Assembly (NCBI GenBank): GCA_049319825.1
Contig: JBMORT010000008.1
Span: 12,331-76,330 of the forward strand
Direction of reading: 5' to 3'
Length of the DNA stretch: 64,000 nt
Source of the DNA: Patescibacteria group bacterium
GTDB lineage: Bacteria; Patescibacteriota; Patescibacteriia; UBA11705; DATKZF01
Positions 3,822 through 60,100 of the stretch are shown piece by piece. A model generated the notes under the pieces. It saw only the letters and a program-made list of their open reading frames with translations, had not been told where the DNA came from and ran no database searches. Made by a program: the position numbers and the translations under genes. Each line of letters begins with the position of its first letter. The first letter of the stretch is position 1.

Positions 3822-5666
3822 TTGAAAAAAAACATTAAATTGGATAAAATGAAAGCATTAGTAAATAATTTTGGTGACTTTATGATTACCGCAGCTGAGC
3901 TCAGAAGAAAATACATTGAGTTTTTCAAAGAAAAAGGCCATAAACAAATAGCTTCGGCTTCTTTGATTCCCGAAAACGACCCGACTGTTTTGTTCACCAC
4001 GGCCGGCATGCACCCCTTGGTGCCGTTTTTAATGGGCGAGAAACATCCGTCGGGAAAACGTTTGGTTGATTTTCAAAAATGCGTCAGAACGGACGATATC
4101 GACGAAGTCGGCGACAGAACTCATCACACATTTTTTGAAATGCTCGGCAATTGGTCGCTCGGGGATTACTTTAAAAAAGAAGCGATCGAGTGGAGCTTTG
4201 AATTTTTAACCGATAAAAAATGGCTGGGCTTGCCGCTTGAAAAATTGGCAGTCACTTGTTTTGAGGGCGATAAAGACGCGCCGCGCGATGAAGAGTCCGC
4301 TGAAATCTGGAAAGGTTTGGGCATTCCCGAGCATAAAATTGTTTTTTTAAGCAAAAAAGACAACTGGTGGGGTCCGGCCGGCGAGACCGGACCGTGCGGG
4401 CCGGACACGGAAATGTTTTATTATATTGGCGAAGGCAATCCGCCGCGGGATTCCAATCCTGGAAATGATGAAAGAAATTGGGTGGAAATTTGGAATGATG
4501 TTTTCATGCAGTACAATAAAACGATTGACGGAAATTACGAGCCGCTGATTCAAAAAAACGTTGATACCGGCATGGGGCTTGAGCGGACTTTGGCGGTGAT
4601 CAGCGGCCTTGACGACAATTACCGCACCGAGCTTTTCTGGCCGATTATTGAGAAAATTCAGGAGTTGTCAGGAAAAAAATATGACGAAAGCGAAAAAGTC
4701 ATGGTTTCGATGAGAATAATTTCGGATCATCTTAAAGCCGCGACCATGATTTTGGGCGATGAGCGCGCGGTGGCGCCGTCGAACGTTGACCAAGGCTACA
4801 TCTTGCGAAGGTTAATCAGGCGAGCGATCAGACAGGCCAAGCAAATCGGCATTGGAAACAACTTTACAGTCGAGCTGGCAAAAGTGGTTGTTAATATGAT
4901 GGCAAAGACTTATTCCGAGCTTTTGGAAAATAAAGTCAGTATTTACGATGAATTGAAAAAAGAAGAAGAAAAATTCAGGCAGACGCTGGAAAAAGGGGAG
5001 AAAGAATTCAATAAAATGTCCAAAGACAAAAAGATCAGCGGCACCGAAGCGTTTATTTTGTTTTCGACTTACGGCTTTCCATTGGAAATGACCATGGAAA
5101 TGGCTAAGGAGATTGGGGCTAAAATTGATGAAAAGGAATATTTAAAAGAGTTTAAAAAGCATCAACAGCTGTCAAAGACCGCCTCGGCCGGCAAGTTTAA
5201 GGGCGGCTTAGCCGACGCTTCAGAGGAAACAAAGCGCTTGCACACGGCCGCGCATTTGATGCTGGCCGCTTTGCGAAAAGTTTTGGGCGATCATGTTGTT
5301 CAAAAAGGTTCAAACATCACGCCGGAGCGGCTACGGTTTGACTTTTCGCATCCTGATAAAATGACGGCCGAACAGAAAGCTGAAGTTGAAAAGCTGGTCA
5401 ATGAAGCGATTGAAAAAGATTTGCCGATTTCCTGCGAGGAGATGACGCTTGACGAAGCGAAAAAGATTGGAGCGATGGGCGTGTTTGAATCCAAATATGG
5501 CGAGAAGGTGAAAGTCTATACGGCCGGCAAGGGCAAAGATATCTTTTCCAAAGAAATTTGCGGCGGCCCGCACGTGACACGCACCGGCGAGCTGGGCAAG
5601 TTTAGGATTAAAAAAGAAGAATCGAGTTCTGCCGGGGTGAGGAGGATAAAGGCGGCGCTGGAGTGA
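3822..5666 (+). CDS. alaS: alanine--tRNA ligase, short form (catalytic plus editing domains, no C-Ala domain); true start probably near 3894 (MITAAELRRKY)
   Basis: FTTAGM...FQKCVRT...HHTFFEMLGNWSLGDYFK class II AlaRS core; HTAAHLM...HxxxH editing-domain motifs; the ORF ends after the editing domain at a TGA stop. Confidence 0.85.
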   Translation: MKKNIKLDKMKALVNNFGDFMITAAELRRKYIEFFKEKGHKQIASASLIPENDPTVLFTTAGMHPLVPFLMGEKHPSGKRLVDFQKCVRTDDIDEVGDRTHHTFFEMLGNWSLGDYFKKEAIEWSFEFLTDKKWLGLPLEKLAVTCFEGDKDAPRDEESAEIWKGLGIPEHKIVFLSKKDNWWGPAGETGPCGPDTEMFYYIGEGNPPRDSNPGNDERNWVEIWNDVFMQYNKTIDGNYEPLIQKNVDTGMGLERTLAVISGLDDNYRTELFWPIIEKIQELSGKKYDESEKVMVSMRIISDHLKAATMILGDERAVAPSNVDQGYILRRLIRRAIRQAKQIGIGNNFTVELAKVVVNMMAKTYSELLENKVSIYDELKKEEEKFRQTLEKGEKEFNKMSKDKKISGTEAFILFSTYGFPLEMTMEMAKEIGAKIDEKEYLKEFKKHQQLSKTASAGKFKGGLADASEETKRLHTAAHLMLAALRKVLGDHVVQKGSNITPERLRFDFSHPDKMTAEQKAEVEKLVNEAIEKDLPISCEEMTLDEAKKIGAMGVFESKYGEKVKVYTAGKGKDIFSKEICGGPHVTRTGELGKFRIKKEESSSAGVRRIKAALE

Positions 5667-9579: not shown

Positions 9580-9678
9580 GGCGCCACCGCGTCTTTTTTT
9601 GATTTTTGGGAATAATTTGGTAAGATGAATTATCATGGATCACGTATCATGGATCATGTATCAATTTAATATTGTTAT

Positions 9679-9813
9679 GTTCCATGCTCCATGCTCCATG
9701 CTCCATGCTCCATGTTCCATGTTCCATGTTCCATGTTCCATGTTCCATGTTCCATGTTCCATGTTCCATGCTCCATGCTCCATGCTCCATGCTCCATGCT
9801 CCATGTTCCATGA
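9679..9813. repeat. perfect heptanucleotide tandem array (TCCATGC)4(TCCATGT)8(TCCATGC)5(TCCATGT)1 TCCATGA, 19 units, ending 10 nt before the mutS ATG
   Basis: Read directly; degenerate tcatggatca copies at 9640-9675 upstream of the array. Confidence 0.9.
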
Positions 9814-9823
9814 TTAATGACTT

Positions 9824-12379
9824 ATGCCCGAAACCCCAATGCTGAAACAATACAAAGAAATAAAAAAGAAGCACCAGGACGCAATCTTATTTTTTCGGCT
9901 GGGAGATTTTTATGAAATGTTCGGACCGGACGCCATTGAAGCCTCAAAAATTTTAAATATCACCTTGACTGCCAGAAATAAAGGCACGGAAAACGAAACT
10001 CCCATGTGCGGCGTGCCGTATCACGCGGTCGACGGCTACTTATCAAAGCTGACGCGGGCAGGTAAAAAAGTGGCTGTCTGCGAGCAGCTGTCAGATCCGA
10101 GCCTGCCCGGCATTGTGGAAAGAAAAGTAATCCGCACTGTCACTCCGGGCACGACTTTGGATGATAATATTTTGGACAATAAGGAAAATAATTATCTGGC
10201 TTCGCTGTCATTTTTAAAAAAGAGATGGGGCATGGCAGTGTGCGACCTGACTACCGGAGAATTCCAGGTCGGCGAATTCGAAGAGTTTGACATGCTGCAA
10301 AATGAAATTTTCAGGATCGCTCCGTCAGAAGTTCTGGTCACGCCGAGCCTTTTAAACAATTCGGATTTTCAAAATTTTTTTAGTAAATTAAAAAACGTCA
10401 ATTCGTTTCAGATCCCGAGCTTTGAGCAGCCGGCTGATTTTATTTTAAAGCATTTTAATCTGGCCGGCCTGGCCGGGTTTGGCATTGATCGGCTGGAGAT
10501 CGGCCAGACAGCGGCCGCGAATCTACTCGGATATTTGAAAGAAACACAGAAAACGGATTTGGAGCACATTACCAAAATGTCTTTGTACAATTCGCAAGAG
10601 TTTATGGCGCTCGATGAGGCGACGATCAGGAATCTGGAGCTTTACGGCACAGCGCAGGATTATCAGTACGAAGGCAGCTTGTTGTCGGTGATTGACCATA
10701 CTTCGACAGCCATGGGCGGCAGAAAGCTCAGGCGCTGGCTCAGGTATCCGCTGCTGAAAAAAGAGCCGATTGACCGGCGTTTGGAATCGGTGTCTGAGCT
10801 GGCTCGAGATATTGCCAGACAAGGTAAATTTATCGACACTTTGAAAAAAGTGGCTGACATGGAGCGCCTGCTCGGCCGCATCGGCTGCCAGCGCACGAAC
10901 GCGCGCGATTTGATCGCTTTGAAAAACTCTTTGCGCCAAGTGCCGAAGCTCAAGCAAATGCTGGCTGATTCCAAGGCTGAATTATTGCAAAAAATTTATG
11001 ATAATTTGGACGAGCAGATTGATTTGGTGCATTACCTTGAGCATGTGATCGAAGAAGAGCCGCCGGCGATCATCACTGAGGGCAACATGATAAAAAATGG
11101 ATTTAATAAAGAGCTTGATGAATTGCGCTCGATTTCCACCAATGCCAAAGACTGGATCAGCAAAATGCAGCAGCAGGAGATTAAAAGAACCGGAATCAAC
11201 ACCTTGAAAGTCAAATATAATAGAGTGTTCGGCTATTACATAGAAATCAGCAAGGCAAATTTAAATTCAGTGCCGGCTGATTACATTAGAAAGCAGACGC
11301 TGGTCAATGCCGAGCGCTTTATCACCCCGGAGCTTAAAGAATATGAAGAAAAAGTTTTGGGCGCTGAAGAAAAAATTAAAAAACTCGAGCAGGATTTATT
11401 TTTCGAAGCCAGGCAGGAGACGATCAAATATTTTCCTCAAATCCAAAATACGGCCGATCTGGTGGCTGAGCTCGACGCTTTGCTCGGGTTTGCCATATTG
11501 GCAGTTAAGGAAAATTATTCCAGGCCGGAAATTGTTCCGAAAAAAATTATTGAGATAAAAGACGGTCGGCATCCGGTGATTGAAAAATTTTCCGGCGAGT
11601 CTTTTGTGCCCAATGACGTTTATCTGGACCATGAGACGCATGAATTGATTCTGCTCACCGGCCCGAACATGAGCGGCAAGTCGAGTTACTTAAGACAGGT
11701 CGCGCTGATAGTTTTACTGGCGCAGATCGGCAGCTTCGTGCCTGCGGCTGAAGCGAAAATAGGTTTGGTTGACCGAATATTTACCAGAGTGGGCGCGGCT
11801 GATAATCTGATCCGCGGCCGGTCGACTTTTATGGTGGAAATGCAGGAAGCGGCCAATATTTTAAATAACGCGACGAAAAAAAGTTTGATAATACTCGACG
11901 AGCTCGGCAGAGGGACTTCAACTTATGATGGCGTGGGCATTGCCTGGGCAATAGTCGAATATATCCATAATAATATCGGCGCCTGCACATTGTTCGCCAC
12001 TCATTATCATGAGCTGATCGAAGTGATTGAAAATTTGAAGAAGGCGCAGAATTATTCAGTGGCGGTGACCGAAGACAATGGCAAAGTGGTTTTTTTGCGA
12101 AAAGTTTTAAAAGGCGGAGTCAATAAAAGCTATGGCATTGAAGTGGCCAAGCTGGCCGGCTTGCCGCCGGAAATCATTGACCGGGCCAATGAAGTTTTAA
12201 TCAAGCTGGAAAATGACAGGGAAGTGGACGTGGTGCGAAATTCCCAGCAGGCGGAAATGCTTTTTTTGCAAAAAGCCGAATCAGAGATTGAAAAAGACGT
12301 AAAAAATTTGGATTTGGATAATTTAACGCCTCTCGAGGCTTTGCAGCAATTGGTGGAATTTAAGAAAAAAATAAAATAA
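9824..12379 (+). CDS. mutS: DNA mismatch repair protein MutS
   Basis: N-terminal mismatch-binding domain (FFRLGDFYEMF), Walker A GPNMSGKS, DELGRGTS, 851 aa. Confidence 0.95.
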   Translation: MPETPMLKQYKEIKKKHQDAILFFRLGDFYEMFGPDAIEASKILNITLTARNKGTENETPMCGVPYHAVDGYLSKLTRAGKKVAVCEQLSDPSLPGIVERKVIRTVTPGTTLDDNILDNKENNYLASLSFLKKRWGMAVCDLTTGEFQVGEFEEFDMLQNEIFRIAPSEVLVTPSLLNNSDFQNFFSKLKNVNSFQIPSFEQPADFILKHFNLAGLAGFGIDRLEIGQTAAANLLGYLKETQKTDLEHITKMSLYNSQEFMALDEATIRNLELYGTAQDYQYEGSLLSVIDHTSTAMGGRKLRRWLRYPLLKKEPIDRRLESVSELARDIARQGKFIDTLKKVADMERLLGRIGCQRTNARDLIALKNSLRQVPKLKQMLADSKAELLQKIYDNLDEQIDLVHYLEHVIEEEPPAIITEGNMIKNGFNKELDELRSISTNAKDWISKMQQQEIKRTGINTLKVKYNRVFGYYIEISKANLNSVPADYIRKQTLVNAERFITPELKEYEEKVLGAEEKIKKLEQDLFFEARQETIKYFPQIQNTADLVAELDALLGFAILAVKENYSRPEIVPKKIIEIKDGRHPVIEKFSGESFVPNDVYLDHETHELILLTGPNMSGKSSYLRQVALIVLLAQIGSFVPAAEAKIGLVDRIFTRVGAADNLIRGRSTFMVEMQEAANILNNATKKSLIILDELGRGTSTYDGVGIAWAIVEYIHNNIGACTLFATHYHELIEVIENLKKAQNYSVAVTEDNGKVVFLRKVLKGGVNKSYGIEVAKLAGLPPEIIDRANEVLIKLENDREVDVVRNSQQAEMLFLQKAESEIEKDVKNLDLDNLTPLEALQQLVEFKKKIK

Positions 12380-12382
12380 GGG

Positions 12383-12493
12383 CAGGGCGCGGGGCGGGCA
12401 TACGCCCGCGTAGGGACAGAATATCTGTCCCTACCGCAGGCAGAGGTAAAGCCGAATTCGGATTCGGCTTTACCTCTGCCTGGCCGCGCCCTG
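12383..12493. repeat. GC-rich cloverleaf palindromic element, copy 1 (outer 10-bp stem plus three perfect hairpins of 6, 11 and 21 bp), followed by a T6 run
   Basis: cagggcgcgg...ccgcgccctg outer stem; hairpins gcgggc-atac-gcccgc, gtagggacaga-ata-tctgtccctac and caggcagaggtaaagccgaat-tcgg-attcggctttacctctgcctg. Confidence 0.85.
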
Positions 12494-12542
12494 TTTTTTG
12501 CGTAATTTAGGGGATTTTTTCGATTTCAAGATCCACCAGCCC

Positions 12543-12571
12543 TTGACAAAATCATCATTATTTGATATACT
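12543..12571 (+). promoter_or_regulatory. sigma70-type promoter (TTGACA, 17-bp spacer, TATACT) firing into the GC-rich island
   Basis: cccTTGACAaaatcatcattatttgaTATACTgcataca; consensus -35, optimal spacer, near-consensus -10. Confidence 0.45.
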
Positions 12572-12577
12572 GCATAC

Positions 12578-13358
12578 ACTGAACCTTGAATTACATTTCC
12601 CCGCGGTTTTGGATCGCCCCGACCTTCATACCAGAAAATTGATGGGGCGGAACTTCACATTACCCGCGGGTTTCTTAGATGATAAACCCAAAGCCATAGC
12701 CTGCCGCGTCAAATCGGTCGGGCGAGTGAGGACGCGCGGATGTAGTTGCTGAGCCTCCGTGGCAGAGGGTTTTCATAGGGATGCTAGCTCTCCCTGACCA
12801 TACGGCTGCGTTTCGCGGTTGGAAGGGGTGCATCTGCACGATGCCACTGCACTTCGATGGTCGAAACTAGCTTTCCTTTGGTGCCAACGCCTTCTGGCGT
12901 TTGCATGGGGCTTTGGCAGCTCCTTAGATAACCGGCAAGAGGGCCTTCTTGTCGGGGTAAATCTGAGAGCTTCCAGGGCTCTCAGAGATGGTAAGCTTCG
13001 GCGAGCCATTCATGCGCCACCTCCAGTCCCATCGCCGGAAAAAATGCGCGGACAGGAAGGCTGCCGGTGAAAGTCGCGAGGGGGGACGGCTCTCTCCACG
13101 CGTCATGTGAGCTGGCAGAGTTAAGCCACACGATTGCCGCAGATACTCCGGATCTGCGGAGCCGCTTTCGTGAGGTGAGCGCGATGCCATGATCGCTGTT
13201 TGGCGACTGGCTGAGTGCTACTGGTTCCCTCGGGAGGAATCGCCTGGGGGAATTTACGTCCGGAGGGTAGGCCCACCCAAAGGACACAAAAAAAACGCGC
13301 AATGCGCGTTAAGATAAACGAGACGTTTCTTCACAGAGGCGTCTCGATTTCGTTTAAA
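12578..13358 (+). ncRNA. candidate structured non-coding RNA of unassigned class (~780 nt, ~60% GC, no credible ORF), or non-coding cargo of an inserted element
   Basis: Sharp GC jump from ~40% to ~60%. Only short, mutually overlapping ORFs on both strands. A dedicated promoter lies upstream and a hairpin plus U-rich tail at 13322-13358. Many local helices, e.g. CCCGCGG...CCGCGGG at 12600-12670. Confidence 0.35.
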
Positions 13359-13362
13359 AAAA

Positions 13363-13473
13363 CCGGGCGCGGGGCGGGCATACGCCCGCGTAGGGACAGA
13401 ATATCTGTCCCTACCGCAGGCAGAGGTAAAGCCGAATTCGGATTCGGCTTTACCTCTGCCTGGCCGCGCCCTG
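13363..13473. repeat. GC-rich cloverleaf palindromic element, copy 2 (identical to copy 1 except the first bases of the outer arm)
   Basis: Same three hairpins as 12383-12493, located 58 bp upstream of mutL. Confidence 0.85.
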
Positions 13474-13530
13474 CCTGCTTGTCGCACTCGTCTTGCTTGT
13501 CGCACTTTTTTCTGATAAGGTGTAATCGCT

Positions 13531-15390
13531 ATGGGAATCATAAAAGTATTGCCACAAGACATCATTAACCAAATCGCTGCCGGCGAAGTGATCGAGCGAC
13601 CGTCTTCTGTCGTTAAAGAATTGGTGGAGAACAGCCTGGACGCCGGCGCTTCCACCATTGAAATAGAGATTAAAAACGGCGGCCTGAATTTAATTAAGGT
13701 TATCGACAATGGCAGCGGTATGTCCGGAGAAGACGCACTGCTGAGCGTTAAGCAGCATGCCACCAGTAAGATTTCATTGATCGATGATCTGTTCAGGATC
13801 AGCTCTTTTGGATTTCGAGGTGAAGCCCTCGCCTCGATCGCTTCTGTTTCAAAATTTTCTCTCCAAACAAAAGACCAGGATTCGATTTCTGGAAATCGAA
13901 TAACAATTTATAATCAGGAAGTTAGATCAGCGTCCGTCGGCTGCCCCCAGGGCACTTGCGTTTCGGTTGAAGATCTGTTTTATAATGTGCCGGCCAGGAA
14001 AAAATATCTAAAGACGGTCAGCACCGAATTTAATCACATATTGGAATTGTTTACCAGGTTCGCTTTAATTCACGGGAAAGTCAGCTGGAAATTAATTCAT
14101 AACGGTAAAACTGTGTTTCATTTACCGTCAACACCCAAATGGCTCGAGCGTATTGAGTTGCTTTTGGGGGAGCGGATTGCGCAAAATGTGTTCGGCCTCA
14201 GAATAAACATGCTAGATGTTGAGTTTAACGGTTATCTGGGGAAGCCTCAAATCGCTTCAAAGTCGCGAGCCAACCAATTTTTATACATTAACAAGCGCCC
14301 GGTCAACGAGCATATTATTTCAAAAAGCGTTAAAGATGCTTTTCAAACTTTGATTCCCCGCGACTATTATCCCGTTTACTTGATGAATTTGCGCATAGAT
14401 CCATTCAAGCTTGACGTTAATGTCCATCCGCGAAAACTCGAGGTGCGTTTTTCAGAGCCGCAAACCGTGTATCGCAGCGTTTATCGAGCGGTTAGCGCCA
14501 CACTGGATAAAAATAATTTGGTAAAAACGATTTATACTCCCGCTCCGATTGAACAGGCGGAGAATCAGCTGGAAAAAACCGGTTTTTTCGACATTAAAAG
14601 CGCGCTTGAATCAAAAAGCAGGGATTTGAAAATGCCAAGTCCCGGACAGATTAAGCGGGCAGTTGATTTCAACCATTCCATGTACGCGCTGCCTAAAAGC
14701 GCTCGTCGGCTGATGCCCGGCGATAAGATCACCGTAAGTTCAGCAGAACCAATGGCAGTCAAATTTCAGCCGGTGGAATTTAAACAGGAAAAAATAGAAT
14801 TGGTTCGCGAAGAAGATGTTTGGAAAATCATCGGCCAAATTAAAAATTCATATATAATAGTGGAAACCGGCGAAGGATTAAAAATTATCGACCAGCACGC
14901 CGCCTCGGAGCGCGTCCAGTTTGAAAAAATCATCAGCTCATGGAAAACCGATAAGCTGCGGTCTCAAAGTTTGTTGCTGCCGGTCTTGATCGATATGTCA
15001 TCGCTCGAAATGGCTAAAATTCATAAATATCAGTCTCAGCTCAATCGATTGGGTTTTTCCATTGATGTGTTTGGAGAAAACACCGTTAAAATAAATGCGG
15101 TCCCGGCGCTGTTAAAAAATTCCGATATCCAAAAGTTGTTTTTTGAAGTTGCGGCGGAGCTTGATGATCGCATCAATAACGGCGAATTGACCGAACCAAT
15201 AAGAAAAATATTAAACATCTTGTCGTGTCGCAGCGCTGTTAAATTTGGCGACGATCTAACACTCGACGAAATGAAGTCGCTGATCGCGCAGCTTCGATCC
15301 TTGGATAATCAATACACCTGCGTCCATGGTCGGCCGGCCATAATCGATATGAGTTATGGCGAACTGGAAAAATTGTTCAGCCGCAAGTAA
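13531..15390 (+). CDS. mutL: DNA mismatch repair protein MutL
   Basis: GHKL ATPase N-terminus IAAGEVIERPSSVVKELVENSLDAG, DNGSGM; 619 aa. Confidence 0.95.
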   Translation: MGIIKVLPQDIINQIAAGEVIERPSSVVKELVENSLDAGASTIEIEIKNGGLNLIKVIDNGSGMSGEDALLSVKQHATSKISLIDDLFRISSFGFRGEALASIASVSKFSLQTKDQDSISGNRITIYNQEVRSASVGCPQGTCVSVEDLFYNVPARKKYLKTVSTEFNHILELFTRFALIHGKVSWKLIHNGKTVFHLPSTPKWLERIELLLGERIAQNVFGLRINMLDVEFNGYLGKPQIASKSRANQFLYINKRPVNEHIISKSVKDAFQTLIPRDYYPVYLMNLRIDPFKLDVNVHPRKLEVRFSEPQTVYRSVYRAVSATLDKNNLVKTIYTPAPIEQAENQLEKTGFFDIKSALESKSRDLKMPSPGQIKRAVDFNHSMYALPKSARRLMPGDKITVSSAEPMAVKFQPVEFKQEKIELVREEDVWKIIGQIKNSYIIVETGEGLKIIDQHAASERVQFEKIISSWKTDKLRSQSLLLPVLIDMSSLEMAKIHKYQSQLNRLGFSIDVFGENTVKINAVPALLKNSDIQKLFFEVAAELDDRINNGELTEPIRKILNILSCRSAVKFGDDLTLDEMKSLIAQLRSLDNQYTCVHGRPAIIDMSYGELEKLFSRK

Positions 15391-15444: not shown

Positions 15445-16008
15445 TTGTCATTTGCCAATTACCAGCCACGGGGGAAAATGATGAAGCCGTTTCAGACCAC
15501 CGGTTACGCCATTTCCGGCAGTATTGTCCGGCCAGTTATTTATTGCGCCCTCGATCAATTGGCTCAGCGAATTTTTCTGATTGGCGATTTGCTCTCAACG
15601 GAGATTCAGTTTCAGTATGCAGAAGGTCTATTTGACATGATGCATCAATTTGAGATTCATGAGCTTCTTTCTGGCGTGGTGATCCCCAGCCGGGTAGAAG
15701 CGTTTTTGCGGCTGGCGCGAAATGTCAAAACATTCGCCGGACAAAGGCGGGAGTGGCAGGTATTATCGGCGCTGCGCGAGCTTCGCAATCGGGTGGTGCG
15801 AGATTTTCGCGGCCATGAGGAGATGTATTATTTCAATGACCTGCGTCAGCGGGATTTATTTTGGCAGACCTTTGCCGATCAGCGTCTGTATAAGCGCTTG
15901 ATGGGGTTAACGGTGGTGCAGCGTCATGTGCTGTTTACCGCCGAAGAGCGGATGTGTTATTTGAGCAATCTCAACGGACGCATTGCCACCTTGTATTCAA
16001 ACCGCTAA
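15445..16008 (+). CDS. hypothetical protein (187 aa)
   Basis: ORF only; the preceding inverted repeat ggtaattggcaa/ttgccaattacc (15400-15470) overlaps its 5' end. Confidence 0.3.
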   Translation: MSFANYQPRGKMMKPFQTTGYAISGSIVRPVIYCALDQLAQRIFLIGDLLSTEIQFQYAEGLFDMMHQFEIHELLSGVVIPSRVEAFLRLARNVKTFAGQRREWQVLSALRELRNRVVRDFRGHEEMYYFNDLRQRDLFWQTFADQRLYKRLMGLTVVQRHVLFTAEERMCYLSNLNGRIATLYSNR

Positions 16009-23910: not shown

Positions 23911-23939
23911 TGACACATTGATTTTCGTTTGGTATCATA
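23911..23939 (+). promoter_or_regulatory. candidate promoter (TTGACA, 17 bp, TATCAT) followed by a ~140-nt leader upstream of rplJ (possible L10 autoregulatory leader)
   Basis: TTGACAcattgattttcgtttggTATCAT; the long leader contains GGCCTCGCCGGCTTAAAAAACGACCTTGCC. Confidence 0.3.
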
Positions 23940-24085
23940 TACTCACATACAAATACCGCAGACAGCAAGGGCCTCGCCGGCTTAAAAAACGACCTTGCCT
24001 AGGTAAAGCAAAATTTTGCTATTTTTCGCGGTATTTTCAATGCCGTTTTTTATTTAATTATTTTATTAAGATATCTATAATTTAT

Positions 24086-27568: not shown

Positions 27569-29710
27569 CTACAAATGCTTCATCCCCACCGTCCACACTT
27601 TCGCGTCCCCGATTATGTAAATCTTTTTATTTTTTTCATCAATAACCAAGCTGTCAATCTCATTGATATTGTCTACTTGATATTGGACGACGTTCAGTCC
27701 TTGCTTGCTTAAAACAATCACGCGCCGTGTCGGCCGATCGATCAGATACAGAAAACTTGAATCTTTGTCCGTGTAAATATAATCAGCGCTTTGGATGGCC
27801 GGTTCGATTTTTTGAACGCTGAATGTTTGCTTTTTGCCGCTTAAAAATTTGATGATATTGCCATTTGCCGTCAGTACATAAATATCACCGTCAATGGCTA
27901 TCGAATTGGCGCCGGATAAATTAGTTTGATCGCCGATCCATTCCGTCGCGGCGCCCAGCGAAGTGCCGCCCATGCCGCGTAATTTATAGATTTGATTTTC
28001 ATCAGAGGATAGAATGTATAAATTGGTGTTGTAAATTTTGAAATCATCGGCGGGGTGGCCGAACTCAATATCCATTTTTTTCAGTGATGTGTTTTCCGTA
28101 GAATATAAATAACTATCTCCGTTTTGAAAAAGGATAAGCAGATCCGATTGATCAAAAGTATTGATGGCCGATACGGTGGAATCAGATTCGGTATCTATTG
28201 TTTCTTTGACTTGTCCGCTTTTTACATCGATTATCAATACTTTATTGCCGGCTCCCAAAGCTAAAATTTGATCGTTCACCAGACAGGCGGCGTTCGCTTG
28301 GCTGATGCCAGGCAATGAGGCCAGAGCGGTCGCGGCCGTGTCTTCCAGTTTTAATAATTTATTTTGTAGTGATTCGTATTGGCTTTTGATCGATTCGTTT
28401 TTCTGTTTTTGCGCGTCGCTGTCTTGCGGCAGTTTCTTAATCAGCTCGTCGGCTTCCGTCAACAATGACAGGCTTTTTTCGGTGTTTCTGAACAAAAACG
28501 CCGCCTCAGCTTGATTTAGTTTGTCCTCAATTTGAGTAATCGATTGCGTGTACGCCTGGTCTTGTTTTTTTTCTTGCCTTGATTGATAAAGCCAGACAAT
28601 GCTTAAGGCGAAGGCAATCACCAGCGCGCCGATAACCGGCAACAAAATTTTTAATGAAATTTTCGGTTTTTGTGTCGCCGCTGCGTCGGTTTTATCAACA
28701 CCGGTTGCGGCTGGAGCAGACACGGAAAATATGTTCATTTTTTTTAATATTTTTTTAAGTAAGTGGCCAGATGTCCCGGCTCTGATTTCATCGATAATCA
28801 CGCCTTTGGGCTTCTTTTTGAAGGCCAAGAATGATTTTAGCCGGTGTCCGCAATTCTTAATTTTCTGCATGATATTGATGCCAATCGCCGGTGTCAGATA
28901 TTTTTCCGTGTTTTCTTGCGTGGAAACCAAACTGCTGATTGATTTTTGCGAAGCGTGGTCCTGTTCGAATAAATTTATGTCTTCTTGCTTGATAAAAATC
29001 GCCGAGTAGCTGCGACCGTGGTTTTTTAGCCTTTTTTGCAGCAGGACGTTAAAATCCTCGACAAATTCTCTGATCGGCCGGCTGGTCACCAGCTGGTTCA
29101 TTTTTTCAGTTGAAAAAAATCGCGCGAAAGTTTCATTGGAAATAATTAGCGTGTCCGGTCTGAATATTTTTCCGGAGATAATGCTGTTGAAAATTTTTAC
29201 TTTATTGAATTGTTCAGCCGGAGCATTGGTCAAAATATCAATGATTTTATAGTTGGCTTTTTTTGTTTTGTGCACCAGATAGCATTGCATTGAACCGCGC
29301 TGACTGATAATGACGCCGGTATCGGCTTCTTCCTGTTTGACCACCGCCACCAGGAAATTGAAATTTTCCAAAATCAGCTGAATTTGTCCGTTTTGAATGA
29401 GTTGGATTACTTGTTCATTGGTTTTTTGCAGGGCATGTTCAAAAACAGCCTCTAAATTAAGCTTTTTAGGGTCTGGCGAGGTGATCACCTGGCGATAATA
29501 ATGATCTTTTAGCGTGGAAATTATGGTTTGCGAAATTTTCTGACCCTGCTGAGTCGGGGTGGCATTAATTTCGATAATGCCCAAAATATGGCCACCATAG
29601 TTTTCTTTTCCTTCGGGAAAAATAATGAAATTTTCGCAAAAATAATCACTCCCGACCGCTTGCGGGGGCAGAAAAATTTCCTCTATCCTGAGGGCTTTTT
29701 GTTTATCCAT
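27569..29710 (-). CDS. large membrane-anchored hypothetical protein with an N-terminal globular domain and C-terminal beta-propeller-like repeats (likely start MDKQKAL at 29710; ORF track extends to 29785)
   Basis: Central TM helix KILLPVIGALVIAFALSIVWLY; C-terminal repeated YxL/IxxDG-like blades. Confidence 0.5.
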   Translation of the reverse strand: MDKQKALRIEEIFLPPQAVGSDYFCENFIIFPEGKENYGGHILGIIEINATPTQQGQKISQTIISTLKDHYYRQVITSPDPKKLNLEAVFEHALQKTNEQVIQLIQNGQIQLILENFNFLVAVVKQEEADTGVIISQRGSMQCYLVHKTKKANYKIIDILTNAPAEQFNKVKIFNSIISGKIFRPDTLIISNETFARFFSTEKMNQLVTSRPIREFVEDFNVLLQKRLKNHGRSYSAIFIKQEDINLFEQDHASQKSISSLVSTQENTEKYLTPAIGINIMQKIKNCGHRLKSFLAFKKKPKGVIIDEIRAGTSGHLLKKILKKMNIFSVSAPAATGVDKTDAAATQKPKISLKILLPVIGALVIAFALSIVWLYQSRQEKKQDQAYTQSITQIEDKLNQAEAAFLFRNTEKSLSLLTEADELIKKLPQDSDAQKQKNESIKSQYESLQNKLLKLEDTAATALASLPGISQANAACLVNDQILALGAGNKVLIIDVKSGQVKETIDTESDSTVSAINTFDQSDLLILFQNGDSYLYSTENTSLKKMDIEFGHPADDFKIYNTNLYILSSDENQIYKLRGMGGTSLGAATEWIGDQTNLSGANSIAIDGDIYVLTANGNIIKFLSGKKQTFSVQKIEPAIQSADYIYTDKDSSFLYLIDRPTRRVIVLSKQGLNVVQYQVDNINEIDSLVIDEKNKKIYIIGDAKVWTVGMKHL

Positions 29711-29886
29711 AGCTCGAAATTGACTGCTCAACTGTACTTGTATTATACTATAAATAGATAAAAAGGGGAAATATCTGGCAATCAAATTCAGGCATCAAGT
29801 GTCGAAACAATAAAAAATATTGTTCAGGAGTATTGTCGGGAAATTGAGGGGAATTCGGACAATGTATTTGATGTCTTGGCAAGAGA

Positions 29887-35968: not shown

Positions 35969-36027
35969 TCCATGCTCCATGCTCCATGCTCCATGCTCCA
36001 TGCTCCATGTTACATGATACATGACAT
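35969..36027. repeat. heptanucleotide array (TCCATGC)5 TCCATGT TACATGA TACATGA running directly into the mraZ start codon (catATG)
   Basis: Read directly; same unit as the mutS-upstream array. Confidence 0.85.
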
Positions 36028-41344: not shown

Positions 41345-42277
41345 ATGAATCACAAAATAATTTTAGGAATTGCCGGGGGAATAGTGATTGCCGCGCTGGG
41401 GTTTGGAGTTTATTTGGCTGTCACCAATTTTTCGATTATTAAAAATATTGACTTGGGTCAAGACGCGGATGAGGGAAAAATCGAAAATTTCGACGAGTGC
41501 GCGGCCGCGGGCAATCCGGTGATGGAAAGCTATCCGCGCCAGTGCCGCACGGCCGACGGCCGGCTTTTTGTGGAAGAGATTGACGAGGATGAGTGGGAAT
41601 TTGATTCTGAGTGGGGAGTCGATTACGAGGTCCGTGGCTGCGATGAGGAAAAGCTTCGCGATCCGCTGGCGCAAGAAAAAAAAGACAGAATAGCCGACAT
41701 GACCATTGACGGCAATTATGTAAATTTCACGCATTATTTGAATTATGTTTGCTGCGCTGATATTGAAGTGGAAATAATGGATACAGTCGTCGAAGATGAT
41801 AAAACGACAATTAAATTGCTTGAATCAAATACCGGTGAAATGTGCCGCTGCGTCTGCGATTATGAAGTCGACATCACTCTCGGCTATCTTGATCCCTTCA
41901 AATATACAGTTGAAATGTACGGCGTCGAATTCGAAGGCGAACAAGAGCCGCAGCTTCTCTGGTCAAGAGATTTTCAAATCATTGAATCAGAAGAAGACGG
42001 AGCCGGCATCGGCCTGGCGAATCCGGCTTCAGCGTATTGCCAGGATTGGGGCGGCACTGTGGATATTCGGCATTTTATCGACGGGGATAAGGGATTCTGC
42101 CTGTTTGAGGACGGTTCTGAATGCGAAGAATGGGCATTTTATCGTGATGAATGCTGGGACGGAGAGGTTTTTTGCAAAGATTTATGCGGTGACGGCCAGT
42201 GCCGGGAAATAGTCTGTGAAGCGGTCGGGTGTCCGTGCTCGGAGACAGCCGAATCGTGCCCTGCAGATTGCCAATAA
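41345..42277 (+). CDS. membrane-anchored acidic Cys-rich protein with a DUF333-like (putative hemolysin) C-terminal domain
   Basis: TM ILGIAGGIVIAALGFGVYLAV; ANPASAYCQDWGGTVDI...GFCLFEDGSECEEWAFYRDEC matches the NPAS-YC / C-F-DGS-C-EW-F-R-C pattern of DUF333; 23 Cys. Confidence 0.5.
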   Translation: MNHKIILGIAGGIVIAALGFGVYLAVTNFSIIKNIDLGQDADEGKIENFDECAAAGNPVMESYPRQCRTADGRLFVEEIDEDEWEFDSEWGVDYEVRGCDEEKLRDPLAQEKKDRIADMTIDGNYVNFTHYLNYVCCADIEVEIMDTVVEDDKTTIKLLESNTGEMCRCVCDYEVDITLGYLDPFKYTVEMYGVEFEGEQEPQLLWSRDFQIIESEEDGAGIGLANPASAYCQDWGGTVDIRHFIDGDKGFCLFEDGSECEEWAFYRDECWDGEVFCKDLCGDGQCREIVCEAVGCPCSETAESCPADCQ

Positions 42278-42622
42278 CGTAAAATAACGCAAAATAACGC
42301 CAAAATAACGCAACATAACGCCAAAATAACGCAATATAACGCAACATAACGCCAAAATAACGCAATATAACGCAACATAACGCCAATATAACGCAACATA
42401 ACGCAAAATAACGCAATATAACGCAACATAACGCAAAATAACGCCAAAATAACGCAATATAACGCCAAAATAACGCAATATAACGCAACATAACGCCAAA
42501 ATAACGCAATATAACGCAACATAACGCCAATATAACGCAAAATAACGCAATATAACGCAACATAACGCAAAATAACGCCAAAATAACGCAATATAACGCC
42601 AACATAACGCATATAACGCCCG
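42278..42622. repeat. degenerate minisatellite, ~33 units of 10/11 bp (AAAATAACGCA / AAAATAACGCCA / ATATAACGCAAC), starting at the stop codon of the preceding gene
   Basis: Read directly; mean period ~10.5 bp. Confidence 0.9.
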
Positions 42623-42644: not shown

Positions 42645-42763
42645 GGCCGATTCACGGCCGGCGCACGCGCCGGCCGCAGAGACGCGCCGCGGCGCGTCTC
42701 TGCACCGGACATGGTAAAACCGAATTCGAATTCGGTTTTACCATGTCCGGCCATGAATCGGCC
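42645..42763. repeat. GC-rich cloverleaf palindromic element, copy 3 (diverged sequence, same architecture: outer stem ggccgattca/tgaatcggcc plus three perfect hairpins, the last a 24-bp palindrome with two GAATTC sites)
   Basis: cggccggcgc-ac-gcgccggccg; cagagacgcgccgcggcgcgtctctg; ccggacatggtaaaaccgaattcgaattcggttttaccatgtccgg; shares the ggtaaaRccgaattcg core with copies 1 and 2. Confidence 0.8.
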
Positions 42764-48993: not shown

Positions 48994-49593
48994 ATGCATG
49001 AGTATTATAATTTGCCGGATTTGCCTTACGGCTACGCCGATCTGGCTCCGTACATAAGCGAGGAGCAATTAAAAATTCATCATACCAAGCATCATCAGGG
49101 TTATGTCAATGCGGCTAATAAGATTTTTAATATGCTGGCTGAAGCCAGAAAAAGCGGTTCTGAGCTTGACGTCAAAGCGACTTTAAAAGAATTGTCTTTT
49201 AATGTGGCCGGGCATTTGCTTCACTCTCTTTTTTGGACAAAAATGGCGCCTCAAGGCGCGGGAGGAGAGCCCGGCGATTTGGGGAAAGCATTGGCTGAGG
49301 AATTCGGATCGGTCGAGAGGTTTAAGGATGAATTTAGCCTGGCGGCTGTTTCCGCGGAAGGTTCTGGCTGGGCAGTTTTAACCTATGATCCCTTGGTAAA
49401 AAAGTTAATGATTACCCAGATTGAAAAGCACAACGTGAACCTGGTACCAAGCCTCCCCGTTTTGATGGCGCTTGATGTCTGGGAGCATGCATATTATCTG
49501 GATTATAAAAATGAACGAGCCAAATTTGTCGAGGCGTTTTGGAATATTGTCAATTGGCATGGTATTAATGAGAGATTTAAGAAATTTCAATAA
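48994..49593 (+). CDS. sodA: Fe/Mn superoxide dismutase
   Basis: LPDLPYGYADLAPYIS...HHTKHH...DVWEHAYY. Confidence 0.9.
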   Translation: MHEYYNLPDLPYGYADLAPYISEEQLKIHHTKHHQGYVNAANKIFNMLAEARKSGSELDVKATLKELSFNVAGHLLHSLFWTKMAPQGAGGEPGDLGKALAEEFGSVERFKDEFSLAAVSAEGSGWAVLTYDPLVKKLMITQIEKHNVNLVPSLPVLMALDVWEHAYYLDYKNERAKFVEAFWNIVNWHGINERFKKFQ

Positions 49594-49613
49594 ATAATTA
49601 TGGAAACAGGCCC

Positions 49614-49662
49614 GCGGCTTGCAGGAACGCAAAATTTCGTGTGCCTGCAAGCCGCATTTTTA
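49614..49662 (+). terminator. terminator-like 12-bp GC hairpin (gcggcttgcagg-18 nt loop-cctgcaagccgc) plus attttta after sodA
   Basis: Read directly. Confidence 0.4.
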
Positions 49663-49663
49663 T

Positions 49664-49750
49664 CCGCGCGGGCGATGCGCGTTCGCGCCTGGCAGGAACA
49701 CAAAATTTTGTGTTCCTGCGCGCCCGCCGGTGGCGGGCCGCCCGCGCGGC
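49664..49750. repeat. GC-rich palindromes related to the preceding hairpin (28-bp perfect palindrome gcaggaacacaaaattttgtgttcctgc; gcccgcc-ggt-ggcgggc)
   Basis: Read directly; loop sequence aacRcaaaattt shared with the terminator hairpin. Confidence 0.6.
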
Positions 49751-49758
49751 AATACATT

Positions 49759-50382
49759 ATGCAAAATTTAACAAATAAAATCCAAGAATTGAAAAAATCG
49801 CCGGTTAAAAATCAAATTGACCGGCGGATTTCGGAATTTAAAAAAGCGGGCAGAGGATCGGATGATGAGGTTTTTAAGGAATTATGTTTTTGTCTGCTGA
49901 CCGCCAATTCCACGGCCCGGCAGTGCCTCCGGGTTCATTCTCTGGTCGGCGATGGGTTTTTAAATTTGCCCGAAAATAAATTGCAAAAAGTTTTAAAGCA
50001 ATGCGGCGCCAGGTTTCATACTAAGCGCGCCCATTATATCGCCCTGGCGCAAAAGCATAAGAATGAGTTGAAGGAGTTAATGAAAAAGCTGAATGAATTT
50101 GAATTGCGGAACTGGTTGGTTGAAAATATCAAGGGGTTGGGGTGGAAAGAAGCCAGCCATTTTCTCCGCAATATTGGCTATGATGACTTGGCCATCATTG
50201 ACTTTCACATTATCGATATTTTGGAAAAAGAAGGCTTGATCGAGCGGCCAAAATCTTTGAATAAGAAAAATTATTTGGAAATTGAAAATATTTTGCGCCA
50301 GATCGGGCAGAAGGCCGGATTGAATCTGGCTGAGCTTGATTTGTATTTATGGTATCTGGAAACTAATACCGTTTTGAAATAA
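49759..50382 (+). CDS. HhH-GPD 8-oxoguanine DNA glycosylase/lyase (archaeal-type Ogg); start at MQNLTNK
   Basis: Helix-hairpin-helix GLGWKEASHFLRNIGYDDLAIIDFHIIDIL with a catalytic Lys/Asp context. Confidence 0.6.
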   Translation: MQNLTNKIQELKKSPVKNQIDRRISEFKKAGRGSDDEVFKELCFCLLTANSTARQCLRVHSLVGDGFLNLPENKLQKVLKQCGARFHTKRAHYIALAQKHKNELKELMKKLNEFELRNWLVENIKGLGWKEASHFLRNIGYDDLAIIDFHIIDILEKEGLIERPKSLNKKNYLEIENILRQIGQKAGLNLAELDLYLWYLETNTVLK

Positions 50383-57167: not shown

Positions 57168-60100
57168 TTATTTTTTTATCTTTTTTATGGCCTTCGCGCC
57201 TATTTTCGGCGCTTTGTATTTACGCGAAGCTCGGAATGTTCTTTTATTCCAAATCGCCACGACTGGGCTTTTGCCGTCAGGATTCCAATTCGAGTAATTA
57301 TTGAAATTTGTTTCCGGTTCATTAACCAATTCGACTTTTTTGTTCTTTGAAAAGTTTTTTTGATAATACGCGGATACTGTCGGTCGGTTGGAAGATGAAT
57401 GGCTCGCGCCGTCTAACGGCAGAGCCACGATGTCAATTTTTCTTCTTTGCGCCGTTTCTTTCGCGTATTTAATAATTTCCTTTATTAGCGCGTCGCCATT
57501 TACCCGGCCCAGCAAATTTTCTCTTGGATTATTAGCCCTGATGTTTAAAACCTTTTTTCCGTCAGGCGTTTTTGTCTCGATAAATAAAACCGAACCGTCA
57601 ATGCGTTCCTGAGCTTTATTTCGATTGGTCACGATATTGATGCTGGTTATCCCCGGGAATTCGCCTTTGGCCAGCATGTCATGTTGCGAAGTGTAACACG
57701 CGTCGCCAATGTCTCCGGAAAAGACGCGCAAAAGTCCTTTGGCGGACACGAGAGCGATTTCGGTTTTTTTCTTGGTGATTTTACCTTGTTCTGATATTTG
57801 CTGCAGTTGCGCGTTTGTTTGATGTATCAGATGCTTTGCCGGATCTTCTCTTGTCTGCCAGACATCTTCCAATGTTTTACGCAATTTATTGCTGAAAGGA
57901 GAGTGATAAGCGTGATGCTGTTTTTGTTCCGGATGCAAATAATGTTCATTGATGAATTGCAATAATAAATCTGACATTTGTGAAATATCTTGCTTTGTCG
58001 CCTCGCCCTCGCCGGCGGCCAGAGAATCAAAGTGACTCCGCCAGCCGTCTGGAATGATTTTCTTAAGATGAAACGCTGACATGACCTGCAAGGCGTTTTT
58101 TGCCTCTTTGATGTCTGCCAGATCGCTCATAAATTGCACGACTTCTTCTTCGGACGCGTCTTTTTTTATTTCCAGCCCCTCTACCGCGCTTAAAGTGTTT
58201 TCCAAATTTTCAATGCTTTTTTGGATTCCTTTGTTGGCTTTGTCCGGAACTTCGCTTAATTTAGCGCGAGCTTTTTCAAGTTTTTCTGACAGCGTTCCCT
58301 TTATTAATTCCTTTTGCCCTTGCCAATAGCCATTGACATCCTCGATTTTTGATCCTTCTTTCATGGCATCGCGCAGATTTTCAAACATGGCCTGCAAGGT
58401 TTTATTTTCAAGAAGCGCATTTTCCCTTGTGTTTTTTTCTTCATCTGATATCTTGATAGCTTCAGTTTCGGAGATTTCGATCGGTTTTTCTTCATAGCCT
58501 TCTGGCAATTCGGCCAGCTGAGGGATTTCCGCCGCTGTTTTTCGCCAGACATTGATTAAGTTTGACATCGATCCCATTCCTGCCCATTTGGTAGTTCCTT
58601 TTAAAGCCCCGAGCACCTCGATTCCCAGCGCGGTATCTATTTTAGCAGGGATTTTGTCTCGGAGAAGCTCTTGTTGCAGCTTTCTTTTAAAATTTCTAAT
58701 TTCATTTATAACTCCATCCGGAGTTTTGAATTTCTCAAGACTGCCGACGGCTTCTTCCAAATTCTTTCTGGTGTTAGGCTCCAATTCGGAAAGATCTGTA
58801 ATTTTTTTTAATTCCACATAGCTGCCGCACAGCAAAGGCATATTAAACGCCCCGAATTCTTTAATGAAAGACAAAAACATTTCTCCGTCTTCTGTTTTTT
58901 CTAAAGATAGGCGGTTTTCGTCAGTCATTTGTTTTAGCAGAGGCTGAATTTCTTTTGTCCATGGGCAATGGTTTTCATTAGCTGAAAAATCTTGAATATC
59001 GCGCAATTTTATCACTGGCTTTTCCCAGGCGAGGCTGGCTAATACCTGCGGATAAGAGAATAATTTTTTCATTGATGTTTTTGACGCTGCTTCGGCCAGT
59101 TGTTTTTGCTGTTCAGGTGAAGGCGGTAATTTTCCCAGATTATTTAGAAGTTCTAAGGGATCCTCTTGGATTAATTTATTGATAAGTGTATTTTGTTGCT
59201 CGAGCGAGAGGCTTAACTTTTTCAGGGCTGAAAGCATTGCGATGGGATTTTTTTTAATCAGATTTTCGATGAGGTCATTTCGCTGTTTCTGGGAAAAGGC
59301 AAAGTCTTTCAAATGCTGAAGGAGAATGGATGGGGTTTGTTCGATAAGTTTATCGACGAGGCGACTCATTTGGTCATGGGGAATATAAATTTTCCCTATG
59401 TAATTAAGAAGTTCTGCTGGATGCTTTTGAATCAAGGCGTCTATCAGATTATTTTGTTGTTCCGGGGAAAGAGTGAGTTTGTCCAGATCGCGTAGAAGAT
59501 CGGCAGGATATTGATTTGTTAATTCATCAATAAGCCTGTTTTGCTGCTCTGGAGAAATAGTAAGTTTTGATAGAAACGACGGGACTTTTTTAGGGGAATA
59601 TATTATTAATAATTCCGCAAATTCTTCTTGCGTTACGGCAAGCTTTTGAAGATTTTCGAACGCGGTTTCGGGGTCGCGTTGTATAAATCGGTGGATATTT
59701 TCTTTTATTTCCTCGGGTTTTAAATTAAGTTTGTCAGAAAATTTTAATACGGCGATAAAATGGTAACGTATCAGCGTATCTTTGATTTTTTCTAAATCTT
59801 CAGGTGAGAGAACCTTTATCAAATTTTCTACATAATGGCTTCCGCCATATGGTTTCCATATGTTGAGTACTTTGCTAATAATTTTTTCTTTTTGATCGGC
59901 GGAAATTCCCTTTCGTCCCAGATGGTCTATTAAGGAATCCGCGTTTTTATCTATCGCGCGATCTACTAATTCATTTTCCGAAATACCAAAAGCGGCTAGA
60001 TTTGTAAAAATGTTATCAATTTTTCCATTTATAATACATCGATCAATAAGATCAGACTTTTGCTCAGGTGATAAATTAAAGTTTGTTATGTTTTTTGATA

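Follow-up and report, generated by a model that had tools for sequence, protein, structure and literature searches.

The window, the 64-kb stretch of contig JBMORT010000008.1 (assembly GCA_049319825.1) from a Patescibacteria group bacterium that was analysed here, carries a GC-rich island free of long open reading frames (ORFs) between its mutS and mutL genes. We consider this ORF-free stretch very likely to be the gene for a structured non-coding RNA (ncRNA) of approximately 775 nt on the + strand, flanked by dispersed palindromic repeats that are referred to below as cloverleafs. The RNA family has no detectable relative, and its general category is that of the orphan large structured ncRNAs. 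An earlier note, made from the letters of the window, had offered two readings, a large structured RNA gene or a cassette integrated at a cloverleaf-shaped, att-like site that was duplicated in the process. The former is supported by synteny in seven genome types, a conserved promoter and terminator, compensatory changes on the + strand, conservation greater than that of mutS and mutL, and the lack of any protein signal; the latter is weighed with the other alternatives below.

The boundaries originally given for the flanking genes, with mutS ending at 12379 and mutL starting at 13531, are correct. The upstream neighbour, mutS (9824–12379, + strand, 851 aa), was recovered as an ORF, and its 100 %-identical cluster, P0121, carries the MutS_I to MutS_V Pfam domains; the downstream neighbour, mutL (13531–15390, + strand, 619 aa), was also recovered as an ORF. 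The description of the region between them as GC-rich with short ORFs likewise holds, the GC content being 0.55–0.62 in 200-nt windows versus ~0.43 across the whole 64 kb, and the ORFs contained in the island being no longer than 117 aa, overlapping and present on both strands. One further ORF of 169 aa (13254–13763, − strand) begins within the island and extends antisense to mutL. When the island was examined for a protein gene, as had been suggested, none of seven ORFs matched Pfam and none of the five of these seven that were compared with NCBIfam and PHROGs found a match there.

MutL places the window in the Patescibacteria, with five MutL clusters sharing >60 % identity and the next match among 5.8 billion proteins at 49 %. 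The genomes fall into seven types, namely the window, L002 (identical in three further samples), L111–L114, L115/L116, L117/L118, L137 and L138; L137 and L138 were found via MutS and the other relatives via MutL. All seven have an ORF-free, GC-enriched mutS–mutL spacer that includes a sigma-70 promoter (in the relatives, TTGACA-like −35 and TATAAT-like −10 boxes 17 nt apart), a 5′ hairpin and a terminator, and their units close with a terminator hairpin, often GAGACGUUUCUUCA..GAGGCGUCUC. The GC excess is also seen in homologous loci of genomes with 35–43 % GC. The spacer is 1935 nt long in L002 and in the three samples identical to it, 818 nt in L115, 450 nt in L116, 623 nt in L117 and 1188 nt in L138, and where it ends at a contig edge it is at least 852 nt (L111) or >505 nt (L137). 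Two distant Patescibacteria, L003 and L004 (47–48 % MutL identity), have neither the RNA nor a cloverleaf. Hence, a small Patescibacteria clade inherited the RNA locus from its common ancestor and always carries it between mutS and mutL, and the earlier wording that the island was inserted between these genes is misleading. Of the public genomes nearest to the window, L002 (CAYPKD010000002.1) is labelled 'uncultured Gammaproteobacteria bacterium' and the L117 genome 'Candidatus Bipolaricaulota bacterium'; both labels look wrong, since MutS, MutL and the gene order match this Patescibacteria clade.

Transcription of the RNA would begin near A12578, at a strong sigma-70 promoter (12543–12571, + strand) with a −35 box TTGACA at 12543–12548 and a −10 box TATACT at 12566–12571, separated by a 17-nt spacer that includes TG. 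This promoter has 11 of the 12 consensus positions and the TG extension. Transcription would end at a terminator-like hairpin (stem 13319–13329/13336–13346, + strand) that is followed by a U-rich tail, AUUUCGUUU. Both the promoter and the terminal hairpin with its tail had been pointed out before and are present as described. An equivalent −35, 17 nt, −10 layout precedes the homologous RNA in L002, L115, L116, L117, L137 and L138, and the gene's own sequence-level transcription signals, promoter and terminator hairpin, are conserved among the homologues.

The predicted gene (12578–13356, + strand, with ends placed from the promoter and terminator) folds with z = −5.6 on the + strand versus −2.3 on the − strand for the island. 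From its 5′ end the RNA would consist of a hairpin domain, a lineage-variable region, a five-helix core, a second multi-helix domain and two 3′ hairpins, all on the + strand. The 5′ hairpin domain, module A (12600–12670), comprises P1 (12600–12606/12664–12670, CCCGCGG/CCGCGGG) and P2 (12615–12620/12644–12649, CGCCCC/GGGGCG); it is conserved in L115, L116 and L117, P1 showing a C-G to U-A compensatory change, and all of the homologous RNAs begin with a module-A-like hairpin, the base of which reads UUCCYGCGG...CCGCRGGAUUUC. No counterpart of the variable region (12671–12895) could be detected in L115 or L137, and the equivalent stretch of L138 cannot be aligned with it. Next comes the conserved core, module B (12896–13018), a five-helix junction in which P1 (12896–12900/13014–13018) closes around the hairpins P2 (12907–12912/12918–12923), P3 (12932–12941/12946–12955), P4 (12962–12970/12978–12986) and P5 (12987–12992/13005–13010), and in which the junction strings UUGCAU, UUAGAUAA and GGUAAAU are near-invariant. 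Domain C (13019–13250) has a closing helix at 13019–13023/13172–13176 (ACCUC/GAGGU), includes P6 (13057–13068/13111–13122) and P7 (13149–13154/13159–13164), each with four pairs changed on both sides, and contains the conserved strings GAGUUAARCC, AGGUGAG and GCUACUGGU. The 3′ end (13258–13356) adds hairpins at 13258–13285 (GUCC..GGAC) and 13294–13310 (AACGCG/CGCGUU) ahead of the terminator. An anti-Shine-Dalgarno role for the conserved CCACCUCC was rejected, as this string has a conserved AGGUG within the RNA as its pairing partner. A CsrA-type GGA sponge was dropped, the frequency of GGA by hand count being about that expected from composition, and so was a loop–loop kissing interaction between P2 and P4, which is possible in subfamily 1 only.

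The helices are supported by compensatory changes across the homologues, on one strand. Because the MAFFT alignment misaligned module A, as well as the 3′ arm of P4 between two subfamilies, pairs were counted only on reliably aligned helices or on the model-guided alignment. In four full-length sequences, 96.8 % of 67 pairs are paired and 16 have changed on both sides, versus 0–2 when the partners are slid. Helix P3, compared in six sequences, is 100 % paired with five of eight pairs changed on both sides, a score reached by none of 500 shuffles. For the core in seven sequences, using alignment A9, which was fitted to the covariance model R1, pairing holds in 94.7 % of cells, and both sides have changed in 24 of the 36 pairs (2–9 when slid). 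The conserved helices include many G-U pairs, which are compatible with the + strand only. Searching ~208 kb of retrieved loci on both strands with R1 gave matches confined to mutS–mutL spacers and to the + strand, those beyond its four training sequences being L111 272–452 (E = 3e-4), L002 9060–9187 (E = 3e-3) and L002 9521–9668 (E = 0.02). No copies outside the mutS–mutL spacers were found when all RNA loci were compared by BLAST to the same ~208 kb.

Sequence constraint is stronger on the core than on mutS or mutL. The DNA identity of the core to L115, L138 and L137 is 86, 81 and 78 %, respectively, compared with 70 % for mutL and 73–76 % for mutS, and the 3′ end of the RNA is 81–87 % identical to those of L115 and L138. 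Indels of 1 nt occur inside the conserved blocks.

Around this core the locus is modular. The core and the domain that follows it are common to the window, L115, L137 and L138, the downstream part being lost at the contig end in L137. L002 and L111 have three tandem hairpin domains followed by a core with an 80-nt insertion and, downstream, a second promoter–terminator unit with a partial copy of the core, and in L117 three hairpin domains are present without a core. L115 and L116 come from different samples, share the same MutL protein and are 99.8–99.9 % identical over ~21 kb. Here, 421 nt of L115 (9381–9801, between the 5′ hairpin and the terminator and including the core) are replaced in L116 by an unrelated 55-nt hairpin (9749–9803). 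What stays constant is the frame formed by promoter, 5′ hairpin and terminator; what varies is the cargo.

Whether the island belongs to a known RNA class had been left for a covariance-model search, and the earlier attempt to match it by eye to RNase P, transfer-messenger RNA (tmRNA), signal recognition particle (SRP) RNA or group II introns had failed. Rfam 15 models run on 12300–13600 gave no family match even at E ≤ 10, only hairpin-type chance matches far below threshold, which agrees with that first impression. No family was found in the spacers of L002–L004 at the gathering threshold or in those of L111, L115, L117, L137 and L138 at E ≤ 5; one far-sub-threshold match, to BSnc120 (21.6 bits versus 114, E = 2.6), falls on the terminator hairpins of L138. 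The Rfam 15 families left unmatched include RNase P, tmRNA, SRP and 6S RNAs, group I and II introns, OLE, GOLLD, ROOL, HEARO, raiA, riboswitches and ribozymes. At the gathering threshold the only match in the whole window is a ribosomal protein L10 leader (23938–24061), and ARAGORN found no tRNA or tmRNA gene in the 64 kb. No match came from a blastn search of 50,697 phage and 72,556 plasmid records with the whole element as query. Scanning viral contigs with a 16-mer from the long hairpin of the cloverleaf returned 106 stretches, all single isolated matches; these were discounted, as the pattern is too short and the number is approximately that expected by chance for a 16-mer. Three more specific scans of the viral contigs for RNA modules gave no matches. 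A metagenome scan with a module-A pattern returned 18 stretches, comprising 17 chance matches in GC-rich sequence and the contig of L117 itself, and hence no new homologue. No large structured ncRNA for the Patescibacteria was found in Rfam 15 or in the literature searched, and those literature searches found no description of a Patescibacteria ncRNA of this type or of such a palindromic repeat.

The closest comparison is with the large orphan structured ncRNAs of bacteria, OLE, GOLLD, ROOL, HEARO and raiA (Rfam families; cryo-electron microscopy preprint 10.1101/2024.12.08.627333). Like them, the RNA described here is several hundred nt long, ORF-free and GC-rich relative to its genome, has many covarying helices and a multi-helix junction with conserved unpaired nucleotides, is of narrow phylogenetic range, and has a function that is not evident from its sequence. 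Unlike them, it has no covariance-model similarity to any of the five or to any other Rfam 15 family, occurs in Patescibacteria with a chromosomal position fixed between mutS and mutL, is highly modular (0.2 to ~1.6 kb, in one or two transcription units), and shows allelic replacement between near-identical strains.

The cloverleafs that flank the RNA gene lie outside its conserved anatomy. Positions 12385–12493 and 13365–13473 are a 109-nt repeat with 100 % identity; of the two 111-bp elements reported originally, these 109 nt are exactly identical, whereas the full 111-nt spans differ at one of the two extra bases. Within the window, a 35-nt stretch of the repeat used as a probe is found at these two sites only, with none expected by chance. 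The left cloverleaf together with its T-run (12381–12499, + strand) has a predicted fold of −96.3 kcal/mol (z = −13.1), in which an outer stem (12383–12392/12484–12493, 10 Watson–Crick and 2 G-U pairs) encloses a first hairpin of 6 bp (12394–12409), a middle hairpin of 11 bp (12410–12434, GTAGGGACAG..CTGTCCCTAC) and a long hairpin of 21 bp (12437–12482, apex GAATTCGGATTC), all on the + strand, with six Ts at 12494–12499. The proposed architecture, in which a 10-bp stem encloses perfect hairpins of 6, 11 and 21 bp, therefore fits the left copy. The outer stem of the right copy (13365–13473, + strand) is only 8 bp (13365–13372/13464–13471) and no T-run follows it. An ARAGORN test for tRNA-like structure was negative; the cloverleaf is one of shape only, and its arms are perfect palindromes of 6–21 bp.

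Short-read assemblies break at the mutS–mutL locus because of the two identical copies. In the Logan assembly of SRR32167788, the mutS contig stops at window position 12414, 35 nt past the mutS stop codon, and the mutL contig begins at 13444, 87 nt before the mutL ATG. Both contigs penetrate 30 nt into the 109-nt repeat, which supports a genuine two-copy repeat, and ends at 30 nt fit a graph with k = 31, the value assumed for Logan in this analysis.

The left cloverleaf lies 4 nt past the mutS stop codon, and its GC-rich 10-bp outer stem followed by six Ts has the sequence features of an intrinsic terminator, so it would serve as the terminator of mutS, and the triple hairpin looks to be nested in the loop of that terminator. 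Unlike in other intrinsic terminators, its loop includes ~90 nt of three extra hairpins, and the right copy lacks a T-run; the 3′ hairpin and U-rich tail of the RNA are a conserved structure of the same general kind. In L115 and L116, only CAGGG-AGCG-CCCTG and seven Ts are found right after mutS, homologous to the outer stem of the window, and T7 follows the homologous structure in both L117 and L115. The right cloverleaf is absent from the equivalent position in L111, L115, L116, L117 and L138. It is probably a recent duplicate or a gene-conversion product that lies outside the conserved RNA, and the 100 % identity of the two copies is best read as a sign that a repeat element was recently duplicated or underwent gene conversion.

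Folding scans identified nine cloverleaf-type elements at six loci, all of them intergenic. Four of these composite elements are within the 64 kb of this genome (12383–12493, 13363–13473, 42646–42763 and ~49607–49752), and the others are in L002 (8069–8176, 9843–9955 and 18841–18950) and L117 (9381–9471 and 21465–21560). Their sequences differ but the modules recur, with the middle hairpin being GTAGGGACAG..CTGTCCCTAC or G(T/C)AGAGACGCGCC..., and the family shares the cores GTAGRGAC and GGTAAnnCGAATTCGAATTCGnnTTACC, the latter being the core of the long hairpin. L002 has two cloverleafs in its mutS–mutL spacer that differ from one another, the left one with its hairpins in the opposite order, L117 has one in this spacer, and L115, L116, L137 and L138 have the RNA locus without any cloverleaf. 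Among the predicted pairs, 14 of 428 are G-U in the cloverleafs versus 38 of 259 in the RNA gene, and because G-U pairs are so few the cloverleafs appear to be palindromes maintained at the DNA level.

The third cloverleaf in the window (42646–42763) and a small hairpin are directly preceded by a tandem array of a 10-nt unit, AATAACGCAA (42273–42619, 33.8 copies, with higher-order periods of 31 and 134 nt), which lies between DUF333 and Na+/H+ exchanger genes. The fourth element (~49607–49752) is found between the genes for a superoxide dismutase (48994–49593) and an Ogg-type glycosylase (ATG at 49759) and includes two near-identical hairpins, GCAGGAAC(G/A)CAAAATTT.. The 12-nt sequence GTAGGGACAGAA is also present in the mutS–mutL spacers of the distant, RNA-less L003 (7893–7953), where one long perfect hairpin directly following mutS contains it, and L004 (6720–6735), where it forms a half site immediately ahead of mutL. 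These occurrences may point to a conserved motif of the protein-binding or REP type.

Repetitive extragenic palindromic (REP) sequences and bacterial interspersed mosaic elements (BIMEs) are extragenic GC-rich palindromes of 20–40 bp, often in inverted pairs within larger structures and downstream of genes (PMC3733652), and in the GTAG-REP superfamily one end of the palindrome bears a GTAG (or CGTC) tag that is left unpaired (PMC3733652). The cloverleafs resemble REPs, BIMEs and REPINs (PMC3733652; PMC2817692) in being short, GC-rich, extragenic and composite and in lying downstream of genes, and their hairpins of 16–46 nt in nine composite intergenic elements agree with the REP/BIME description. 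As in GTAG-REPs, the middle hairpin begins with GTAG, copies occur at several intergenic sites in either orientation, and modules are shuffled. However, the GTAG is not an unpaired tag, as it pairs (in GTAGGGACAG and GTAGAGAC) with CTAC at the other end of the hairpin. Unlike in REPs and BIMEs, a closing stem encloses the near-perfect hairpins, and the result is a four-way junction. GTAG-REPs are also marked by many copies in each genome and by an accompanying gene for a RAYT (Y1 transposase); the 64-kb window holds four composite elements, and no Y1_Tnp (RAYT) domain was found among its ORFs. The cloverleafs would, then, be REP/BIME-like DNA palindromes, almost purely Watson–Crick, with three hairpins held in terminator-type outer stems.

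A TIGR-Tas array was also considered. TIGR systems produce 36-nt tigRNAs with dual spacers of 8–12 nt and box C/D motifs and are found beside a Nop-domain Tas gene (PMC12045711). Like TIGR-Tas of Patescibacteria and phages, the locus has non-CRISPR stem-loop or repeat arrays with variable inserts in genomes of the candidate phyla radiation, and conserved bases recur in the three tandem hairpin units of L002 and of L111. The TIGR-Tas reading was rejected as the units are 105–170 nt with no TIGR periodicity, the neighbours are mutS and mutL, and the window has no Nop-domain ORF.

Some of the evidence weighs against a large structured RNA gene in the form proposed. The start of transcription, the 3′ end and the transcript itself are deduced from promoter and terminator sequence, and the role of the left cloverleaf in ending mutS transcription would follow from its shape and T-run. 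Seven genome types, with four to seven sequences per helix, limit the power of the covariation statistics, and the fitting of A9 to R1 qualifies the seven-sequence result for the core. Finally, the core is missing in L117 and in the L116 allele, and because of this it is dispensable, at least in some strains, which is the feature hardest to explain and the chief reason for caution over a function of the RNA.

The integrated cassette of the earlier note, in which a mobile unit of promoter, RNA and one cloverleaf entered at a pre-existing cloverleaf and duplicated it, is very improbable and has been largely refuted by the comparative data. Its attraction is that the flanking direct repeats are 100 % identical, that the outer end of each copy, left for the left copy and right for the right one, pairs with the other in a perfect 12-bp stem, as if one ancestral element had been split, and that in a circular form the six Ts would follow the cloverleaf; a structured palindromic site present as direct repeats on either side of a 'cassette' also recalls integron attC and CTX-type attP sites. 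However, the comparison that had been suggested, for an uninterrupted mutS–cloverleaf–mutL junction in relatives, found none, as 7/7 genome types carry a homologous RNA at the same site and no empty site is seen. Unlike in those systems, relatives hold the cargo without the sites (the RNA is present without a cloverleaf in L115, L116, L137 and L138, and the two cloverleafs of L002 differ, one being inverted) and the sites are found elsewhere without cargo, at unrelated intergenic positions. Nor was an integrase, recombinase, transposase, reverse transcriptase, Cas or Nop-domain ORF found in the 64-kb window, and the phage, plasmid and viral collections gave no match. Still less credible, and scarcely worth entertaining, is that the island is a protein-coding gene from a GC-rich donor that has decayed. 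The island is GC-rich compared to the rest of the window and has ORFs of up to 117 aa, but these ORFs have no family match (seven compared with Pfam, five with NCBIfam and PHROGs), 1-nt indels interrupt the conserved blocks, substitutions follow base-pairing rather than codon positions, and the GC excess is common to the homologous loci of genomes with 35–43 % GC.

Two further explanations are both regarded here as unlikely. If the spacer were a dump for selfish hairpin or MITE-like (miniature inverted-repeat transposable element) DNA at a permissive site, with no RNA function, this would account for content that is modular and variable between genomes, for the conserved inverted-repeat bases in the tandem hairpin units of L002 and L111, for the exchange of 421 nt for 55 nt between strains with near-identical flanks and for the REP-like cloverleafs in the same spacer. 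It would not account for the conservation, in every genome type, of a near-consensus promoter and a terminator in matching places, for a core more conserved than mutS and mutL, for compensatory changes that use G-U pairs and fit the + strand only, or for the lack of further copies in ~208 kb of sequence from these genomes. The RNA might instead be a very long cis-acting leader of mutL, a riboswitch or attenuator with 13319–13346 as a regulated terminator, since it is co-oriented with and directly upstream of mutL in all genomes, the invariant unpaired junction nucleotides of the core resemble ligand-binding aptamers and the U-tract of the terminator is imperfect. This is as improbable as the selfish-element explanation. 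In the window, 185 nt including a cloverleaf of −90 kcal/mol separate the terminator from the ATG, L002 and L111 have two successive promoter–terminator units, neither the lengths of 0.2–1.6 kb nor the loss of the core in L116 and L117 would be expected of a dedicated leader, and mutL appears to have a promoter of its own. The putative mutL promoter (13493–13521, + strand) consists of a −35 TTGCTT, 17 nt and TGaTAAGGT, and a promoter-like motif is fixed 9–10 nt before the mutL ATG in relatives; TGATAAGCTnTTTnCACT-ATG is conserved in L002, L111 and L115 and looser in L117 and L138. Because the −10 box is just 9–10 nt from the ATG and there is no Shine-Dalgarno sequence (window 13493–13533; L002 9965–10003; L115 9965–10003), a leaderless mutL mRNA is suggested, and transcription would start 2–4 nt before the ATG at 13531 to give an essentially leaderless message.

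Several other features of the locus and the window were recorded. A 12-nt direct repeat, TGCTTGTCGCAC, is present at 13477–13488 and 13495–13506. Heptamer repeats are found directly before the mutS start codon at 9824 (ATGTTCC, 19.4 copies, 9677–9812) and upstream of mraZ (TCCATGC, 5.9 copies, 35969–36009), and ATCCATG-type repeats lie upstream of mutL in L138 (~4385–4415); all three may be phase-variable promoter spacers. Directly after mutL is a gene for a 176-aa protein (15478–16008) that has no Pfam or NCBIfam match and very weak PHROG matches. It shares 44–48 % identity with proteins in L002, L111 and L115 and was not detected in L117, L003 or L004; it was dropped as a candidate partner of the RNA, as it has no family match and co-occurrence is the sole link. 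Several long ORFs in the window have no Pfam match, among them those at 27569–29785 (738 aa) and 57168–60419 (1083 aa).

The structured RNA gene thus remains the preferred reading of the island, and under it the RNA would be an abundant, trans-acting folded particle with a junction core that binds a protein or ligand. Promoter, 5′ hairpin and terminator would form a fixed frame within which recombination gains, loses and swaps internal modules, and the identical direct-repeat cloverleafs are predicted to allow deletion of the RNA gene by homologous recombination. Large structured ncRNAs are rare in bacteria, and each new class, such as OLE, GOLLD, ROOL, HEARO and raiA, has opened a line of work. 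Patescibacteria genomes are tiny and otherwise have little non-coding DNA. That they keep 0.2–1.9 kb of it under a near-consensus promoter at this site argues for a real role. With a family in seven genome types, a covariation-supported core fold and natural deletion and replacement alleles in hand, the RNA lends itself directly to tests by transcriptomics, structure probing and pull-downs. In the cloverleafs, the phylum gains a REP/BIME-like family of repeats, none having been found described for it in the literature searched. More tentatively, and with the odds in our view against it, the locus could be the founding example of a new large modular RNA class, with the junction core as a ligand- or protein-binding or catalytic centre and the frame as a platform into which modules are swapped. 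If so, the flanking REP-like cloverleafs would promote recombination of the modules, and the replacement between L115 and L116 and the duplicated units of L002 and L111 would reflect rapid diversification, a pattern expected of RNAs that take part in a conflict, whether with phages or with the hosts of these episymbiotic cells.

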